Positions 47,456 to 54,366 are shown, counted from the first letter of the stretch. The stretch: 64,000 bases of DNA from Gammaproteobacteria bacterium (GCA_029287435.1 JARFRD010000022.1:433-64432), one strand, 5' to 3'. Numbers and translations: made by a program. Notes: a model not told the origin generated them from the letters alone.

Positions 47456-47612
47456 GACAGGACAGTATATAGCAGTTTTTGTTTAAACGGACATAAATTG
47501 TGGTTAACCAGACATATTTCCCCAACTGCTTTATCTCTATGATTTATCTCAACCAGTGGTCCAACATGTCTGTTGGTGCTGGCAACCGATTAATCAATCA
47601 AGGGGAAATGTC

Positions 47613-48371
47613 ATGAGAATATCGAAAAACCATATAAAACAATTACTTGTTTTGAGTGTCCTGGTGAGTGTTCCAGCGCTTGTATTTGCTGCACTACCCA
47701 ATCCAGGTATGCAGTTTGATCCGGTGCGTACGGCAATTGTGATCACAGACCCACAAAATGACTTTTTAAGCGAAAAAGGCGTAACCTGGGGTGTTGTTGG
47801 CAAGAGTGTGGTCGAGAACAACACGGTGCAAAACATAGAAAGTTTGTTCAAGGCCGGAAAGAAGTATGATGTGCCGGTTTTTGTTTCGCCACATTATTAC
47901 TATCCCACAGATCATGGCTGGAACTTTGAAGGTGCGCTGGAGGCCTTGATGCACCAAATCAAGATGTTCGATCGTAAAGATGCCCTGAGCCTGGATGGTT
48001 TTGATAAATCCGGTGCGGACTGGCTTGCTCAGTATTACCCGTATATAAAAGACGGTAAGACTGTCGTCACCAGCCCGCATAAAGTCTATGGCCCGGATAC
48101 CAATGATCTGGTGCTGCAGCTGCGCAAGCGCGGGATCGATAAGGTCATCCTGGCCGGCATGTCTGCAAACCTGTGTGTTGAATCACATATGCGCGAACTA
48201 CTCGAACAGGGGTTTGAAGTAACAGTAGTTAAAGATGCAACGGCAGGCGCCCAGGTACCTGAAGGTGACGGTTATCAGGCCGCCCTGGTGAATTTCAGGT
48301 ATATGGCGAATGCAGTGGTTACAACAGATGATGCTGTGAAGGCCATTTCTACAAAGTCTGATCTCAAATAA
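47613..48371 (+). CDS. secreted isochorismatase-family cysteine hydrolase
   Basis: TAIVITDPQNDFL and AGMSANLCVESH motifs. Signal peptide. AAGGGGA precedes ATG 47613. Confidence 0.85.
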   Translation: MRISKNHIKQLLVLSVLVSVPALVFAALPNPGMQFDPVRTAIVITDPQNDFLSEKGVTWGVVGKSVVENNTVQNIESLFKAGKKYDVPVFVSPHYYYPTDHGWNFEGALEALMHQIKMFDRKDALSLDGFDKSGADWLAQYYPYIKDGKTVVTSPHKVYGPDTNDLVLQLRKRGIDKVILAGMSANLCVESHMRELLEQGFEVTVVKDATAGAQVPEGDGYQAALVNFRYMANAVVTTDDAVKAISTKSDLK

Positions 48372-48390
48372 GACCTCAACACAATAATTA

Positions 48391-48446
48391 GCGGACAGAC
48401 CACGTTTACTGATATTGAGATGTAGCTGAGATATCGTGGTCTGCCC
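48391..48446. repeat. family-C inverted-repeat pair (56-bp hairpin element)
   Basis: GCGGACAGACCACG (48391-48404) and CGTGGTCTGCCC (48435-48446), followed by TTTTTG, 20 nt after the stop codon. Confidence 0.85.
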
Positions 48447-49288: not shown

Positions 49289-49341
49289 CATTTTTATTCT
49301 CATAGAACTGCTAAAATAAATTTCTATTTTTTGCATTATAA

Positions 49342-50238
49342 ATGAGGTTCATGATGCCAGGACGTTTACCAGCAACGCGTAAAACCAGGCTCAGTCTGCT
49401 GCTTGCAGGGTTGTCTCTGGCTGCAGCTGTCGCTCAAGCCCAGGCATTTGAGCTTACTTTTGAGGCGCATTCTGCGCAGACGTTTTCACAACCCCACGAC
49501 ATCACCTTGTCACCAGATCAACGCTATCTTTATGTAGCGGATAACAATAACGATCGCATCGCGGTGCTGGATTCCTCAACACTCACGCTGCTGGGCAGTT
49601 TTGCAGATGGTGAAGTCAGCGAGCCGCATGATGTGGTGTTTGATACAGACGGCAGGTTGCTGGTAGCCGACACGGGGAATAGCCGCGTTGCAATCTATCA
49701 AGTGTCGGGTATAAAAGGGCGTTTCGTCGGTGAAGTTACAGGCAACTTCTCACGCCCGGAGGGAGTGGCCGTTCACCCTAACGGTCGACTCTATGTGACG
49801 GGGGCCGGCTCCGGAAATATTGTGGCGATCAAAAATAACCGCACTATAGCCAGTGCCAGTGATTTATCGTCTCCGCATGATGTGGTGGTTGCAGCGGATG
49901 GTTCAGTGTGGATAGCTGATGCCGGCAATGATCGACTGGTACGTATGAGTGAAGACTTGCAAACGCTCAGCGTTATTAAAGGCAAACCGTTTGGCTTCAA
50001 TGGCCCGCGCTACCTGGCTATTGATAGCAAAGGACGTTTGTATGTGGCTGACAAGTATGCCCACCAGATCAAGCTTATTACGCCGGACCATAAACTGTTT
50101 TACACCCTGGGACAGGATCGCGCTGGTAAAGGCCCAGGTTTGTTTGACCGGCCTGAAGGAGTCGTTATCCATAATGATCTGGTCTGGTTCTCTGACACAT
50201 ACAATAATCGCATTGTTCGTTATCGCATCAGTGAATGA
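49342..50238 (+). CDS. secreted NHL-repeat beta-propeller protein
   Basis: Signal peptide. Repeated PHDV..D..G...VAD.GN.R motifs. The start may instead be ATG 49351 behind GAGG. Confidence 0.75.
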   Translation: MRFMMPGRLPATRKTRLSLLLAGLSLAAAVAQAQAFELTFEAHSAQTFSQPHDITLSPDQRYLYVADNNNDRIAVLDSSTLTLLGSFADGEVSEPHDVVFDTDGRLLVADTGNSRVAIYQVSGIKGRFVGEVTGNFSRPEGVAVHPNGRLYVTGAGSGNIVAIKNNRTIASASDLSSPHDVVVAADGSVWIADAGNDRLVRMSEDLQTLSVIKGKPFGFNGPRYLAIDSKGRLYVADKYAHQIKLITPDHKLFYTLGQDRAGKGPGLFDRPEGVVIHNDLVWFSDTYNNRIVRYRISE

Positions 50239-50271
50239 AGAGCTAAAGCTATAGTAATAAAGTCAAAGAGT

Positions 50272-50301
50272 AATGAAGGTCAGACCCCGATTTTCGCGAC
50301 C
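50272..50301 (+). repeat. family-C repeat (GGTCAGACCCCGATTT variant)
   Basis: AATGAAGGTCAGACCCCGATTTTCGCGACC. Confidence 0.7.
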
Positions 50302-50338
50302 TACCGGCCGATGAAATAATTCCCTCGTCCTAACTCTG

Positions 50339-51100
50339 TTACAGCGCGAGAGGGGATTGTAAACCAGTTTCAGGCTCCTGTTTTTTAGTCAGAATGGTTG
50401 GTTCGGGTACAAGTTCAAATTTGAATTGCGTCACCAGCCTGCCTTCAAACCAGGTATCCAGATACAGATGCTGTTTGCCCCTGGTGACCGTGAAACCCTT
50501 TTGCTCGACGGGTTCAATGGCAACGAAGCTGAGATTGGCAGGCAACTGGATATCGATGGATACCCGCATCGGGAAATAGCCATCAAGAAACTTTCTCATG
50601 AACGGGCCGTTCTGCATAACAAAGCTGCCATCATCCTGTGCGATCAATGCCCGGCTTTCGGCCTCGATGCATAAACGGGCATGCTTCTTTACATCGGTTA
50701 ATTGCACAGTATGACCCTCCACCCGGGCCTCGCCGATATTGTTATGCTCGGTAATACGCAGATTACGGATCTTGCCCTCTTTATAGACAATCTGCACACG
50801 AGGAAATATGTCCAGGTTGTCATGACATTGCTGAAGCTTAATCCAGCCCGTTTTGATACTACTTTTGAGCACGGTTATTTTGTTATGGTGGTGATGGACC
50901 GGTTTATCTATTGGTTTGTCGAGGAAATTCAGTTCGCCCTCGTTAATAGCATCGATGACCTCGTCATCGTCACCAGGCCAGTAGGTGTCCCAATCTATAT
51001 CTGCCCGTGAGCTGGCCACTGCGCTGGCGAATAGCGAGACCAGCAGCAGTAAGGTCATACTGACTAATAAATGCACCGGAGGCTTTTCTTTTGCACACAT
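50339..51100 (-). CDS. secreted protein of unknown function, paralogue 1
   Basis: 253 aa with a signal peptide. About 80% identical by eye to the 52343-53053 product. Contains a PVHHHHN motif. Confidence 0.65.
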   Translation of the reverse strand: MCAKEKPPVHLLVSMTLLLLVSLFASAVASSRADIDWDTYWPGDDDEVIDAINEGELNFLDKPIDKPVHHHHNKITVLKSSIKTGWIKLQQCHDNLDIFPRVQIVYKEGKIRNLRITEHNNIGEARVEGHTVQLTDVKKHARLCIEAESRALIAQDDGSFVMQNGPFMRKFLDGYFPMRVSIDIQLPANLSFVAIEPVEQKGFTVTRGKQHLYLDTWFEGRLVTQFKFELVPEPTILTKKQEPETGLQSPLAL

Positions 51101-51159
51101 GTTGCTAGTTTTAACCTATTTGAGGCAATGTGCAAGATGCAATAGGTACGGAATTTAGA

Positions 51160-51185
51160 TTAATAGGGGACAGACCACGATTTCC
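51160..51185 (+). repeat. family-C repeat
   Basis: TTAATAGGGGACAGACCACGATTTCC. Confidence 0.9.
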
Positions 51186-51277
51186 AGAAAACTGCTAGAC
51201 TAGATTTTCTACCTTTATATGAACAAGGAGGTTCATGATGCCCAGGACGTGTACGGTTATCATTGCCAAATATTCCC

Positions 51278-52255
51278 ATGCAGGACCTACCTGAGTCACA
51301 GCGCACTGAACTATTTTCACAGCTCTCGACACTGGAAGGTGCGGGTGTTCCAGCCGATCGTGCACTGAAAACGATAGCCGCATCCAGCACCGGGCAGCTC
51401 GCGTTGCGTGCCGGGCAGGCCGCTATCGCTATCGGCAATGGGCATAGTGTTGCAGCAGCGGGCAAGCATGTTGGTTTATTCACTGCGTTTGAAACAAATC
51501 TATTGCAGGCAGTCATGCATGCGGGTAGCCCGGAGTCTGTCTATCGACGCCTGGCTCGCTATTATGATCGACGCGTGCAGCATAGACGAAAAGTAAAAAC
51601 GAAACTGATATTACCTGTGCTGCTGCTGGTAATGGCCATTTTCATTTCTCCTTTGCCGCAGCTGGTAGTTGGGAAAATCTCCGCCGAGGTCTATCTAATT
51701 AGAACCCTGGGCGTCTGCCTGCTATTAGCTTTCATACCGTATGGGTTGAAGCAGTTGCCAATATGGTTGCGTGAAAGCCGGCTGCAACGCAATGACGCTG
51801 GCGACTGGATTGCCCGCCTGATCATGCATCTGCCACTGTTCGGTGCCGCCAGCATAAGGCGTAATCGGACACAGTTCCTACAGGTGTTATGCCTGCTGCT
51901 GCAAGCGGGTATTCCGGTGTTTGATGCCGTGCCGCTGGCAGCAAGCACAGTGCCAGACAACAGAATAAGAAAAGACTTTGAAGCAATTCTTGAACGGCTG
52001 CAGTCAGGTCTCTCGCTGAGCGATGCGTTGTCCCAGTCGGTCTATTTTGATGGCAGTGCGGTGCTGGTTACCGCCGCAGGGGAGGCAACGGGTGATGCGG
52101 GAGAAGTCATTTGTCGCTATGCCGAGTCCGAATACCAGCATCTGCAGAAGTTCGATGACGAATTTGCCACCTGGCTGCCCCGGTTGCTGTACTTTGCAGT
52201 GCTGTTGCTGATGGCATGGGGGATCGTGAGCAGCATGCCTGGTCCGTCCGCCTGA
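51278..52255 (+). CDS. type II secretion system F (GspF/PilC)-family membrane protein, orphan
   Basis: Two T2SSF-like helical domains (LSTLEGAGVPADRAL..., LLLQAGIPVFDAV...) and three TM segments. The start is uncertain (see frameshift finding). Confidence 0.65.
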   Translation: MQDLPESQRTELFSQLSTLEGAGVPADRALKTIAASSTGQLALRAGQAAIAIGNGHSVAAAGKHVGLFTAFETNLLQAVMHAGSPESVYRRLARYYDRRVQHRRKVKTKLILPVLLLVMAIFISPLPQLVVGKISAEVYLIRTLGVCLLLAFIPYGLKQLPIWLRESRLQRNDAGDWIARLIMHLPLFGAASIRRNRTQFLQVLCLLLQAGIPVFDAVPLAASTVPDNRIRKDFEAILERLQSGLSLSDALSQSVYFDGSAVLVTAAGEATGDAGEVICRYAESEYQHLQKFDDEFATWLPRLLYFAVLLLMAWGIVSSMPGPSA

Positions 52256-52342
52256 ATCCCATCATTGGTCAACCAGCAGAAATATAAAATTGAGTATTCA
52301 TCGTTGCAGGATTCCTGTTTAACCCGTCGATCGTTTGCTTTG

Positions 52343-53053
52343 CTACTGGATTGCTGTTTCGGGAACACGTTTAAATCTGATTCGTGTTATCAGCCTGCCT
52401 TCAAACCAGCTATCCAGCTGCAGACTCTGTCTGCCCGTGGTGACGGTGAACCCCTGTTGCTCGACGGGTTCAATAGCAACGAAGCTGAGATTGGCAGGCC
52501 ATTGGATATCGATAGATACACGCATCGGGAAATAGCCATCAAGAAACTTTCTCATGAACGGGCCGTTCTGCAAAACAAAGCTGCCATCATCCTGCGCGAT
52601 CAATGCGCGGCTTTCAGCTTCGATACATAGGCGGGCATGATTTTTTACATCGGTTAATTGCACAGTATGACCCTCCACGCGGGCCTCGACGATGTTGATA
52701 TGTTCGGTAATACGCAGATTGCGGATCCTGCCCTCGTTATAGACAATCTGGGCACGGCCAAATGTATCCAGGTTTTCATGGCATTGCAGCAGCTTGATCC
52801 AGCCCGTTTCGATACTGTTTTGCTGGATGATGAATGTGTTGTGGTGGTGATGGACCGGTTTATCGGGAGGCCTGTCGAGGAAATTCAGTTCGCCCTCGTT
52901 AATGGCATCGATGACCTCGTCATCGTCACCAGGCCAGTAGGTCTCCCAATCTATATCTGCCCGTGAGCTGGCCACTGCGCCGACGAATAGCGAGACCAGC
53001 AGTACTGCCGTACTGACGAATAAATGCATCGGAATCTTTTGTTTTATGCGCAT
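52343..53053 (-). CDS. secreted protein of unknown function, paralogue 2
   Basis: 236 aa. Nucleotide-level similarity to 50339-51100 is visible over about 700 bp. Confidence 0.65.
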   Translation of the reverse strand: MRIKQKIPMHLFVSTAVLLVSLFVGAVASSRADIDWETYWPGDDDEVIDAINEGELNFLDRPPDKPVHHHHNTFIIQQNSIETGWIKLLQCHENLDTFGRAQIVYNEGRIRNLRITEHINIVEARVEGHTVQLTDVKNHARLCIEAESRALIAQDDGSFVLQNGPFMRKFLDGYFPMRVSIDIQWPANLSFVAIEPVEQQGFTVTTGRQSLQLDSWFEGRLITRIRFKRVPETAIQ

Positions 53054-53192
53054 AGCGACAGTTTTTATCCATTTGTTGCAGAGTGCAAGGAGGAGTTCGG
53101 ATCGCTGTTATCTACACGGTGCTCACCGACCCGGGTCTACAGGTTGAGCTGGAGGCAGTCAAAAAGACTGGGACTACCATGAGGAAAAGATT

Positions 53193-53209: not shown

Positions 53210-53241
53210 TCCACACAAATATGCTGCAGGGAGCCATTGAT

Positions 53242-54366
53242 ATGAGAAAAACGTTCATAAACCTGTCTATTTTAGTTCCGATAATACTATTGTCGGCATG
53301 TGATTCGAATGAAGTATCTGAAAACAGCACGCCTGCGAATACTGAAGAAAAGGCCGCTGTGCAGACGACAGACCAGCAGCAAGTTGCTGCTCCTGTAGAG
53401 TCAGAGACCAGGGCAGAGTCAGAGTCTAAGGTAGAACCAGAGATTATGGCTGCTGCACCAGCTCTTAGCGGTGAAGCCTTATATACCAGTGACAAGGCAC
53501 CGGACTCGATGCTTTATGACAAACCGCAAAAGGTCATTGATGGCGTCTGGTCTGCTATCGGTGCTACGGCACCGGCCAGGTATGAAAACTCGGGACATAA
53601 CAATAACCTGTCCTTTGTTATTACCACTGAGGGCGTTCTGGTCGTCAATGCCGGCGGCAGTTACCTGCTGGCAGAGGCTTTGCATACAGAAATAAAAAAA
53701 ATCACCGACCAGCCCGTCAAGTATGTAGTGCTGGAAAATGGACAGGGCCATGCGATGCTCGGTTCAGGTTATTGGAAAGAGCAGGGCGCGACAGTGATCG
53801 CGCATAAAGATGCAGCACACGAGATTGAAGAGAAATCGCTTGATATTCTTGAGCAGCAAAAAGAAGTTCTGAAGGACAAGGCTGACGGCACAAAAGTTGT
53901 GATGCCCGATGAGACCTTTGAAGATAAAAAGATAATTGAAATGGGCGGCGAGCGTATAGAACTGCTTAACCTGGGCCCAGCACACAGTCCGGGAGATATC
54001 ATTGTCTGGCTGCCGCAAAAACAGCTGGTGATTTCCGGAGATATGGCTTTTCATCAACGTATGTTGCCATTGTTTGAAGAAACAGATACCGCCGCCTGGA
54101 TAGAAAGCTGGGACAACTTTGCTGCCCTGGACGCGAAATATGTCATTCCGGGACATGGTGAGCCAACTGATATGGCAGAGGTTACGCGTTACACAAAGGA
54201 CTACCTGGTTTTTCTTCGCGAGAAGGTGGGTGCAGTCCTCGAAGATGGCGGATCACTGCTGGAAGCCTATGAAATTGATCAGTCTGATTTTATGCATTTA
54301 CCAACAGCCGAATTTTTGTCCAAACGCAATGCCGGGCAAGTCTTTCAGTCGATGGAGTTTGAATAA
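53242..54366 (+). CDS. MBL-fold lipoprotein with degenerate metal-binding motif
   Basis: Lipobox LLSAC. MBL-like LGPAHSPGD and IPGHGEP are present, but the HxHxDH position reads ENGQGH. Confidence 0.6.
   Translation: MRKTFINLSILVPIILLSACDSNEVSENSTPANTEEKAAVQTTDQQQVAAPVESETRAESESKVEPEIMAAAPALSGEALYTSDKAPDSMLYDKPQKVIDGVWSAIGATAPARYENSGHNNNLSFVITTEGVLVVNAGGSYLLAEALHTEIKKITDQPVKYVVLENGQGHAMLGSGYWKEQGATVIAHKDAAHEIEEKSLDILEQQKEVLKDKADGTKVVMPDETFEDKKIIEMGGERIELLNLGPAHSPGDIIVWLPQKQLVISGDMAFHQRMLPLFEETDTAAWIESWDNFAALDAKYVIPGHGEPTDMAEVTRYTKDYLVFLREKVGAVLEDGGSLLEAYEIDQSDFMHLPTAEFLSKRNAGQVFQSMEFE

Follow-up and report, generated by a model that had tools for sequence, protein, structure and literature searches.

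A probable local duplication in an uncultured Arenicellales gammaproteobacterium sets the 5' region of an NHL beta-propeller gene before a stand-alone T2SSF-like gene

Introduction

Adjacent chromosomal units that share a head and a tail can arise by segmental (tandem) duplication with promoter or 5'-end capture and differential gene loss. Integron-like arrays, by comparison, combine several units with a shared site and a nearby recombinase, and their cargo varies among strains or close relatives. Among envelope proteins, the periplasmic NHL-repeat or YncE-like beta-propellers (PF01436) form one group and the GspF/PilC platform proteins another. The platforms have an N-domain of ~55-60 residues, which is non-essential in PulF, and a polar residue beside an invariant proline in TMS1 (Tyr-Pro) and TMS3 (Glu-Pro) is reported to be conserved in all GspF/PilC homologues (PMC10790770).

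Here we describe a locus in which an NHL gene and a GspF-like gene head two adjacent units, each closed by a convergent gene for a secreted paralogue. It lies in the window, the whole 64,000-nucleotide stretch of gammaproteobacterial DNA that was analysed, and the host lineage, Arenicellales, is one group of uncultured marine sulfur-type bacteria. Our main reading, to which we assign a probability of roughly 0.7, is that both units are the product of a lineage-specific local (segmental) duplication and do not constitute a mobile or modular cassette.

Results and discussion

Two units with a common architecture

The genes and duplicated blocks of the two units are as follows.

49351 to 50238, plus strand: secreted NHL-repeat beta-propeller gene, 295 aa from ATG 49351 (PF01436)
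50339 to 51100, minus strand: paralogue 1, 253 aa, signal peptide and beta-sandwich domain (BLASTP, family alignment, AF2 model)
51278 to 52255, plus strand: stand-alone short T2SSF (GspF/PilC-fold) inner-membrane protein, 325 aa (PF00482, alignment, AF2, Foldseek)
52343 to 53053, minus strand: paralogue 2, 236 aa, family-typical C-terminus VPETAIQ-stop (BLASTP, family alignment)
50399 to 51136: duplicated block B1 (blastn)
52355 to 53089: duplicated block B2, partner of B1 (blastn)

Pairwise alignment bore out the architecture given in a preliminary description of this DNA, in which a leader, an unrelated gene and a convergent paralogue occur twice, and the likeness is statistically sound. 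The paralogues are 80% identical as proteins (188/236, E 5e-145, BLASTP), and the DNA of B1 and B2, judged beforehand to be 80-90% alike over ~700 bp, is 85.6% identical over 738 bp (blastn), with the repeat families D1 and D2 of a repeat search spaced 1956 and 1953 bp apart. The similar stretch takes in 36 bp ahead of the start codons and, at its other end, breaks off at the paralogue 2 stop codon. A novel 17-aa C-terminal tail on paralogue 1 is absent from the rest of the family, and the terminus VPET.IQ-stop is common to paralogue 2 and the outgroups. The unrelated middles of the two units are similar in length (1030 and 1101 bp by the blastn block limits), and in the blastn comparison of the units the NHL and T2SSF gene bodies had no mutual similarity.

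The gene of unit 1 is an ordinary ~290-aa NHL propeller. Its product matches PF01436 at 5.3e-37, has five recognised NHL repeats and a signal peptide, and belongs to a large, well-conserved family of ~290 aa (1326 homologues, many of them 60-83% identical); a partial match to ScyF (NF035926) scores 79.9 bits, far under the cut-off of 350. Its relatives have His_Phos_1 and UPF0270 genes downstream, whereas here the paralogue occupies that place. The start had been set at 49342 but is most likely ATG 49351 or 49354, with gene callers giving 295 or 294 aa and orthologues beginning MM, as does every NHL orthologue in unlinked contexts.

The shared leaders

Two leaders head the units.

49296 to 49369, plus strand: leader 1, apparent native 5' region of the NHL gene (blastn block, four-way alignment, MM-starting NHL orthologues)
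51180 to 51254, plus strand: leader 2, apparent duplicate of the NHL 5' region, fused upstream of the T2SSF gene (blastn, alignment, pattern search)

Leader 1 contains a conserved box (GATT.CCA.AAACTGCTA), a GAGG Shine-Dalgarno sequence, ATGATG and the first ~6-9 NHL codons; leader 2 contains the box, AAGGAGG, ATGATG and ~6-9 NHL-type codons. The ~65-bp likeness reported earlier is significant, since 49306-49369 and 51190-51254 align at 77% identity over 66 bp with identical spacing (blastn), at E = 1.9e-6 pairwise and 5.1e-5 against the whole 2.62-Mb assembly. The similarity does include the Shine-Dalgarno sequence and start codons, as had been stated, but it does not end there and runs ~9 codons further, with a 1-nt indel. 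For the string AACTGCTARA, 0.16 occurrences are expected in the window and two are present, and the pattern AACTGCTARA-N-GAGGTTCATGATG occurs genome-wide only at the two leaders, each match being exactly 51 nt (reversed control, 0). No additional leader copy was found in the 2.62-Mb assembly, and a search of the genome for further window-type paralogues, as the preliminary description had proposed, likewise returned none. A sigma-70 scan recognised no promoter.

Because the similarity enters the NHL gene by ~9 codons, NHL orthologues start MM and the T2SSF gene natively starts at ATG 51278 (see below), the shared leader reads as a property of the NHL gene (upstream box, ribosome-binding site, ATGATG and first ~9 codons), a copy of which would be fused before T2SSF.

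The junction between the units

Between the NHL and T2SSF genes lie two further features.

50399 to 51254: contiguous duplicated junction piece, ~0.86 kb (blastn blocks, order from sequence)
51161 to 51182, plus strand: dispersed REP-like intergenic repeat, one copy inside the spacer, core GGGGACAGACCACGATT (repeat family D3)

In order, the junction piece consists of the paralogue block B1 (50399-51136), a 53-bp spacer and the leader copy A2 (51190-51254). Neither parental flank matches the spacer, which consists in part of the REP-like insertion; this repeat has 13 copies in the window against 0.18 expected, and the positions of its copies do not account for the duplication breakpoints.

Conservation and age

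The four-gene layout is present in six same-species assemblies and in a sister species (83-91% amino-acid identity), with identical gene content and order, and all four genes are conserved across the species split; the NHL protein is 89% identical to its sister-species orthologue. Positional orthologues of the paralogues are 87% (paralogue 1) and 83% (paralogue 2) identical between the species, and the two paralogues are 80% identical to each other in the window and 74% within the sister species. Because orthologues are thus more alike than paralogues, the duplication evidently predates the species split. Both units have been retained through speciation, and the pairing could also be functional.

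The short T2SSF protein of unit 2

Structurally, the GspF-like protein has two T2SSF repeats (PF00482, E 2.3e-35) and three long hydrophobic helices, which its AF2 model (pLDDT 82.8) places at 86-123, 136-166 and 274-319. Foldseek matched this model to the PilC model 3jc8 at E 1.3e-7, and the cytoplasmic domains of EpsF, OutF, PilC and TcpE superpose on it with a TM-score on target of 0.75-0.88 and an rmsd of 1.2-2.4 Å. Compared with the GspF/PilC/PulF platforms, the protein has a shorter periplasmic loop and no N-domain: it aligns to positions 59-374 of 401 in TIGR02120, the first ~58 GspF residues being missing, and the domain is likewise lacking when the protein is aligned with the genome's own PilC-/GspF-like proteins. 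The polar pair has also gone, with Leu at the positions of PulF Tyr168 and Glu370; the TMS1 and TMS3 prolines are kept, within Leu-Pro (KLILPV) and Leu-Pro-Arg (TWLPRL) in place of YP and EP. In the genome's own PilC-/GspF-like proteins, TMS1 carries Tyr-Pro and TMS3 either Glu-Pro or Met-Pro. The loss of the pair is common to most of the short subfamily, where a conserved W-[LIMVF]-P-R motif is found instead. The best NCBIfam score, to GspF, is 108.8 bits against a cut-off of 424, and none of the curated equivalog cut-offs (GspF, HofC, XpsF, PilC, ComGB) is reached by this protein or by ten other members of the short subfamily.

Taxonomically, short T2SSF genes are sporadic, occurring in 8 of 400 sampled genomes of the class. 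The 325-aa form gives end-to-end alignments with 147 cluster representatives (E < 1e-30, 310-340 aa), which makes ATG 51278 the native start. The orphan status noted beforehand stands: the 64.5-kb contig C62 has no PF00437 match and thus no T2SSE ATPase, the genome's ATPases being on C43, C170, C82 and C92, and no ATPase, pilin or secretin gene lies beside a short T2SSF gene in the eight contexts examined, seven of which are other loci. The gene is a member of a sporadic, always stand-alone short T2SSF subfamily.

The copied start codons open a further reading frame.

51235 to 51294, plus strand: 19-codon ORF from the copied ATGATG (sequence)

An extra C (CCC 51241-51243) puts this ORF one base out of frame with the T2SSF ORF. 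The base is the same in six assemblies and missing in the sister species, in which the copied start is in frame with T2SSF and yields a 339-aa protein. No obvious Shine-Dalgarno sequence precedes ATG 51278. Between the window and the sister species, the T2SSF proteins are 91% identical, 70 of 978 nt differ, and a rough hand estimate of dN/dS is about 0.25.

The paralogue family

The preliminary description did not recognise the paralogue family, and Pfam, NCBIfam and PDB sequence searches indeed gave no match. The family comprises at least 437 database proteins, is present in at least 283 species genomes, mostly of sulfur-oxidising Gamma- and Betaproteobacteria, and is strongly conserved (mean column identity 52%). 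Its hallmark is an N-terminal signal-like helix followed by NEGEL.FL, PVHHH(H)N, QCH, a second Cys and a GPFMRKFLDGYFPMRV block, and paralogue 1 has NEGEL.FL, PVHHHHN, QCH and GPFMRKFLDGYFPMRV. We defined 29 invariant columns from 34 sequences; both window paralogues keep 29/29, and all invariant residues are present in a third family copy on contig C139. The AF2 model of paralogue 1 (pLDDT 83.7) is a single domain with about 165 structured residues, for which the best Foldseek match is the N-terminal beta-sandwich of M1 zinc aminopeptidases (6koz, 1z1w; E 3.5e-4, probability 1.00). Both are all-beta sandwiches, but the TM-score is low (0.37, TMq) and identity is 8-14%, and the paralogue has its own conserved HHHH, QCH, Cys and GPFMRKFLDGYFPMRV motifs and no counterpart of the catalytic (HEXXH) domain of M1 aminopeptidases. 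We therefore rejected membership in the M1 N-domain group, the resemblance being one of fold alone, with no Pfam or PDB sequence relation. The paralogues belong to a periplasmic beta-sandwich family that has no name and is marked by an HHHH motif and two Cys; a metal or redox site might be built from this His4 motif and the two invariant cysteines.

The family gene is single in 79 other species and has no T2SSF or NHL gene within 6 kb there; its usual neighbours are a HAD hydrolase on one side and NUDIX/CysQ-like genes on the other. NHL and short-T2SSF relatives elsewhere are in unrelated contexts, with no such linkage. The preliminary description had named lack of linkage to T2SSF-like genes in other genomes as evidence against itself, and on this part the evidence goes against it, because T2SSF and NHL genes are absent near the family elsewhere.

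Proposed history

Mechanistically, the simplest anatomy would be one contiguous 0.86-kb piece (a paralogue copy, a short spacer and a copy of the NHL 5' end) set between the NHL and T2SSF genes. An equivalent account would have an NHL-T2SSF-paralogue segment duplicated in tandem, followed by reciprocal loss of T2SSF from copy 1 and of the NHL body from copy 2. Each junction would bear a scar: paralogue 1 would have lost its native stop and come to read into its new 17-aa tail, and T2SSF would have gained NHL expression signals together with, in the sister species, a 14-codon NHL-derived N-terminal extension. Two diverging copies of the periplasmic HHHH/Cys beta-sandwich protein would then be made from different upstream regions, and the NHL propeller and the T2SSF-like protein are probably co-regulated, because their promoter and ribosome-binding regions are near-identical. 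The sequences show directly where the homology blocks begin and end, how many copies exist, that the genes are conserved between species, what the native N-termini of both gene families are and that linkage is lacking elsewhere; the order of events, co-regulation and all biochemical roles we infer, and the order is not demonstrated, because no genome was found with the predicted single-copy ancestor (NHL-T2SSF-paralogue).

Segmental duplication with 5'-end capture fits the contiguous junction piece, the marks left at each junction (an added C-terminal tail on one gene, and on the other a uORF or an N-terminal extension of foreign origin) and copies that are fixed and diverging in step with speciation. 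The locus differs from a plain segmental duplication in that no ancestral single-copy state was found and in the REP-like element of the junction spacer. The duplication would be a tidy, ordinary case of a bacterial gene gaining another gene's expression signals locally, a product of ordinary genome evolution with no pointer to a new mobile or modular system.

Alternative explanations

A pair of neighbouring units alike at head and tail, with unrelated middles of like length, would also suit a genuine system of exchangeable cassettes, be it integron-like or otherwise driven by recombination, with the leader as the recombination or expression site and the cargo swapped, and the preliminary description had indeed spoken of a cassette with cargo. 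Such a reusable module is contradicted by there being just two units and two leader copies in the genome, by the same cargo in all six assemblies and the sister species where that of integron-like arrays varies, and by a family that is unlinked in other species. No recombinase or integrase families were found among the ORFs between 46 and 57 kb, the neighbourhood of the AACTGCTA-box leaders, nor was any structured repeat, known RNA/DNA element or compositional anomaly, and the unit head is merely the 5' end of a conserved chromosomal gene (NHL). We consider this reading largely refuted already and give it next to no credence. Convergence on a shared regulatory site (a transcription-factor operator) and a strong ribosome-binding site, in place of duplication of the NHL 5' end, would agree with conservation being strongest at the box AAACTGCTAGA and the Shine-Dalgarno/start region across all four leaders (both of the window and both of the sister species), and with a CTAG-A-CTAG palindrome inside the leader 2 box. 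It is highly improbable nonetheless: the likeness holds along the entire 66 bp with the same spacing and carries on for ~9 codons inside the gene with just a 1-nt indel; the codons copied are NHL-type (MMPGR) and foreign to the T2SSF family; and no regulon exists, the box being confined to these places in the genome.

Turning from leaders to genes, the GspF-like gene could be a decaying remnant, a truncated and frameshifted platform from a lost T2SS or pilus cluster that would make unit 2 debris. The missing ~58 residues of GspF, an ORF one base off the frame of the strong copied start, the absence of nearby ATPase or pilin partners and a score far under the GspF equivalog cut-off (108.8 versus 424 bits) all point that way. 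Yet nothing is missing from the 325-aa form by the standard of its own, distinct subfamily (147 representatives). The ORF is unbroken in six assemblies and its product shares 91% identity with the sister-species protein, at a nonsynonymous/synonymous ratio of ~0.25 by hand count; the confident AF2 model matches PilC/EpsF/OutF folds, and the absent N-domain is dispensable in PulF (PMC10790770), so that we find decay very unlikely. The units might instead be functional two-gene modules in which each periplasmic paralogue serves the facing gene alone, as its chaperone, receptor or cofactor carrier, one copy having specialised after duplication for the NHL protein and the other for the T2SSF-like protein, with selection, and not just history, preserving the architecture. 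This would be in keeping with both units being intact across the species split, with every product being an envelope protein, with paralogues that diverged to 80% yet keep all invariant family residues, and with a distant short-T2SSF locus (G352) that also faces a convergent gene for a beta-propeller-domain protein. But the family gene does without a T2SSF or NHL neighbour in 79 other species, one MAG has its NHL and paralogue-family genes on different contigs, convergent genes are not co-transcribed, and short T2SSF genes elsewhere have no such neighbour; we judge dedicated partnership unlikely.

Possible meaning of the short T2SSF protein

Joining the local duplication with the features of the T2SSF protein, one may further propose, as an outside chance, that short stand-alone T2SSF proteins are an undescribed PilC/GspF-derived class and that this Arenicellales lineage has a new co-regulated envelope module. 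The class, with no N-domain, a Tyr/Glu constriction pair replaced by Leu and a WLPR motif, may need no ATPase or pilins of its own and could serve, for instance, as a gated channel or to anchor periplasmic partners at the membrane; in the module, the NHL-propeller promoter would have come to drive T2SSF, next to a periplasmic HHHH/Cys protein whose gene was duplicated. The short T2SSF proteins are always orphans and have lost a polar channel pair reported as universal in GspF/PilC, and, if they work alone, they could offer a natural test of whether platform proteins are ion channels.

Homology between the two adjacent units

The preliminary description had proposed that two adjacent units share one architecture, each with a common leader, a gene of its own and a convergent secreted paralogue, and pairwise BLAST and pattern counts show this likeness to be real and not a product of chance. 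The search covered the 2.62-Mb MAG (77% complete) whose contig C62 contains the window. The two paralogues are:

50339-51100, minus strand: paralogue 1, 253 aa
52343-53053, minus strand: paralogue 2, 236 aa

Their proteins are 80% identical (E 5e-145), and their DNA likeness, put by eye at about 80-90% over about 700 bp, came to 85.6% over 738 bp on alignment (50399-51136 versus 52355-53089). The leaders, described as shared over about 65 bp, are 77% identical over 66 bp (49306-49369 versus 51190-51254; E 1.9e-6 pairwise, 5.1e-5 against the whole assembly). A composite pattern, AACTGCTARA...GAGGTTCATGATG, occurred at two genome sites only, which are the two leaders, with each match exactly 51 nt long, and its reversed control had no matches in the genome. 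Leader similarity also passes the start codon, as ATGATGCC(C)AGGACGT(T/G)TAC is present in both units of the window and of its sister species, a related species with the same four-gene layout. The genes enclosed by these homologous heads and tails are unrelated to one another: unit 1 encodes a secreted NHL beta-propeller (PF01436, 5.3e-37), and unit 2 a protein with two T2SSF repeats (PF00482, 2.3e-35).

The paralogue homology block ends on one side 36 bp upstream of the start codons and on the other at the stop codon of paralogue 2, which terminates in VPETAIQ*, as is typical of the family. Past that end, paralogue 1 runs into unrelated sequence and gains a 17-aa extra tail that is kept in the sister species and missing from all outgroups. 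Paralogue 1 is joined to leader 2 by a 53-bp spacer, and the three form one contiguous piece (50399-51254).

A fixed, lineage-specific duplication

The same layout had also been described as a duplicated cassette with different cargo genes, and the evidence argues against a cassette system. The genome holds just the two leaders, with no further copies of the leader or of window-type paralogues found elsewhere in it; the gene order of both units is the same in six assemblies of the species and in the sister species; and no recombinase families are encoded between 46 and 57 kb of the window. Within the region, an Rfam search returned no matches, composition showed no break or anomaly, and a sigma-70 and terminator scan had no hits at the leaders and did not exceed shuffled expectation. 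Linkage of the paralogue to T2SSF genes elsewhere did not materialize either: none of 79 other species loci had a T2SSF or NHL gene within 6 kb of the paralogue-family gene, and no linkage was seen among eight short-T2SSF contexts and two NHL contexts. Relatives of the NHL gene elsewhere are followed by His_Phos_1 and UPF0270 genes, and in one MAG the NHL gene and the paralogue-family gene lie on separate contigs, while close outgroups of the paralogue clade (60-71% identity) are solitary and occupy very different neighbourhoods. Unknown ORFs beside distant short T2SSF genes were considered as paralogue relatives and ruled out (hhalign probability ≤0.2%). The structure is a duplication that is fixed and lineage-specific and has captured the 5′ end of the NHL gene; it is not a cassette system.

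Evolutionarily, the duplication is older than the species split, since orthologue identities to the sister species (87% for paralogue 1 and 83% for paralogue 2) exceed the identities between the paralogues themselves (80% in the window, 74% in the sister species); the NHL and T2SSF genes are 89% and 91% identical to their sister copies, respectively. One other gene of the paralogue family was found in the genome, on contig C139 (locus L004, 7145-7804), where it is 42% identical and sits beside a divergent MlaC-like gene. In the same genus, all ten genomes have the C139-type member alone (34-44% identity to the window copies), and thus the window-type pair represents an extra clade in this species and its sister. 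In an empty-site comparison, the flanking MBL and isochorismatase genes were not conserved in the same-genus genomes.

Leader 2 is a captured NHL 5′ end

NHL orthologues in unlinked contexts (72-92% identity) all start 'MM', so the ATGATG start is native to the NHL gene. For the T2SSF gene, an exhaustive HMMER search with its protein as query gave 147 cluster representatives at E < 1e-30, all of 310-340 aa and all aligning from residue 1-10 through the end of the 325-aa T2SSF form, and this end-to-end alignment places the native start of the family at ATG 51278. Given these two native starts, leader 2 is the NHL 5′ end, copied and fused ahead of a foreign gene. The sister species has the copied ATG in frame with the T2SSF gene, which lengthens the gene by 14 codons, to give 339 aa. 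The window's species has an extra C (CCC at 51241-51243), the same in six independent assemblies, which shifts the copied start one base out of the T2SSF frame, and the result is a short overlapping frame:

51235-51294, plus strand: 19-codon ORF from the copied start AAGGAGG-N3-ATGATG, overlapping ATG 51278

This ORF is read as ATG ATG CCC AGG A, and, going by sequence, if the proline tRNA slipped by +1 at CCC, before AGG, the in-frame product of the sister species (MMPGRVRLSLPNIPMQ...) would be exactly restored. The extra C may be a mutation that is tolerated, or the T2SSF gene may be translated by coupling to the 19-codon ORF or by programmed frameshifting.

We posit that an NHL-T2SSF-paralogue block would have been duplicated in tandem, creating a junction piece made of a paralogue copy, a spacer and the NHL 5′ end, and that the two copies would then have undergone reciprocal loss, copy 1 shedding the T2SSF gene and copy 2 the NHL body, which would have left the present order. 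Tandem duplication with reciprocal loss would explain both the non-native tail of paralogue 1 and the NHL-derived head of the T2SSF gene. The single-copy ancestral arrangement (NHL-T2SSF-paralogue) was not found, and the order of events therefore stays a model. Functionally, the near-identical upstream, RBS and start regions of the NHL and T2SSF genes suggest that these two are probably co-regulated, and the paralogues, which share just 36 bp upstream, have promoters that differ. What is new here is confined to two poorly known gene families that the duplication exposes.

A short stand-alone T2SSF protein

The T2SSF protein is predicted from its AF2 model (pLDDT 82.8) to have a genuine GspF/PilC fold, with Foldseek matching it to the PilC model 3jc8 (E 1.3e-7) as well as to the cytoplasmic domains of EpsF, OutF, PilC and TcpE at TM-scores on target of 0.75-0.88. 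It is a member of a distinct short subfamily without the N-domain, which is dispensable in PulF (PMC10790770). Compared to PulF, the prolines of TMS1 and TMS3 are kept, but Leu stands in place of both Tyr168 and Glu370, a polar pair said to be conserved in all GspF/PilC homologues (PMC10790770). Across the short subfamily (alignment A7), TMS3 has a conserved W-[LIMVF]-P-R motif and TMS1 mostly Leu-Pro, whereas canonical platform proteins have Glu-Pro and Tyr-Pro at these respective positions; the TMS1-TMS2 loop is also 6 residues shorter than in the canonical proteins.

Members of the subfamily turn up sporadically (in 8 of the 400 genomes sampled from the class), and in all eight contexts covered the gene stands alone amid unrelated housekeeping genes, its neighbours being glutaminase, PPK2, PAP2, queC, TauE/rpoH, bioB, and an acyltransferase plus a large unknown protein. 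As first noticed, the GspF-like gene has no ATPase nearby: T2SSE is absent from the window's contig, and the ATPases of the genome are on contigs C43, C170, C82 and C92. The gene and its sister copy differ at 70 of 978 nt, and their proteins at about 30 amino acids, with nonsynonymous/synonymous change of ~0.25 (a rough hand count rather than a formal model), and the gene is under constraint. The literature yielded nothing specific on orphan T2SSF proteins.

The window's genome encodes a second short T2SSF gene on contig C135 (locus L029, 1354-2262; ~302 aa, two repeats, PF00482, 6.5e-49), which is 27% identical to the first and adjoins a rhomboid-family gene. At locus L130 of another genome (G352, contig C104; 2899-10659), a distant short T2SSF gene and a 1353-aa ORF without a Pfam match share 11 nt at the end of the latter. 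The same T2SSF gene is convergent with the gene of an 878-aa protein that carries a beta-propeller domain (PF09826), a layout that loosely echoes the propeller/T2SSF neighbourhood of the window.

The paralogue family

The paralogues had been set down as an unknown family, and they still have no match in Pfam (single sequences and all 34 alignment members), NCBIfam or PDB profiles. There are at least 437 database homologues, all 'hypothetical' except two labelled 'alpha/beta hydrolase', and the family is present in at least 283 species genomes, mainly of Arenicellales, Thiohalophilus, Thioalkalispiraceae, Thiobacillus, Chromatiales, Sulfuriflexus and Hydrogenophilales. The 34-member alignment (mean column identity 52%) reveals conserved NEGEL.FL, PVHHH(H)N, an invariant Q-C(-H), a second invariant Cys, and GPFMRKFLDGYFPMRV. 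The AF2 model (pLDDT 83.7) begins with a signal-type helix, followed by a disordered acidic stretch and then an all-beta domain (residues 66-230), whose best structural match, the N-terminal beta domain of M1 aminopeptidase, is weak (Foldseek E 3.5e-4, TMq 0.37) and is a resemblance of fold, not function. In roughly half of the 80 species loci, the gene of this family is divergent from a HAD-type (YrfG-like) hydrolase gene, and a NUDIX gene follows it within 3-35 bp, with a CysQ-like phosphatase gene next (e.g., locus L026, 6222-8245). The arrangement resembles an operon, in sulfur oxidisers, that joins an exported protein with cytoplasmic nucleotide phosphatases. Our working guess is that the paralogue could act in the periplasm as a binding protein or enzyme that depends on a metal or a thiol.

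Flanking genes and a dispersed repeat

The genes flanking the block (47556-48371 and 53221-54366) likewise encode exported proteins. One product is of the isochorismatase family and has an N-terminus resembling a signal peptide, another is an OMP barrel of the 8-strand type, and a third has an MBL fold and a lipobox-like LSAC. Because these genes lack close orthologues in most genomes of the genus, this entire stretch appears to be a variable region encoding envelope proteins.

A REP-like dispersed intergenic repeat, GGGGACAGACCACGATT, has 13 copies (≤3 mismatches) in the 64 kb, versus 0.18 expected:

25419, 31288, 31797, 31865, 39940, 41397, 44785, 48391, 51166, 54384, 59193, 60211, 63969: 17-nt REP-like cores

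One copy lies inside the 53-bp spacer of the junction piece. The repeats were considered as duplication breakpoints and rejected, as the copies are not placed where the units begin and end. Certain copies are arranged as inverted pairs just 3′ of genes, e.g., 31797/31865, and 48391 with 48430-48446.
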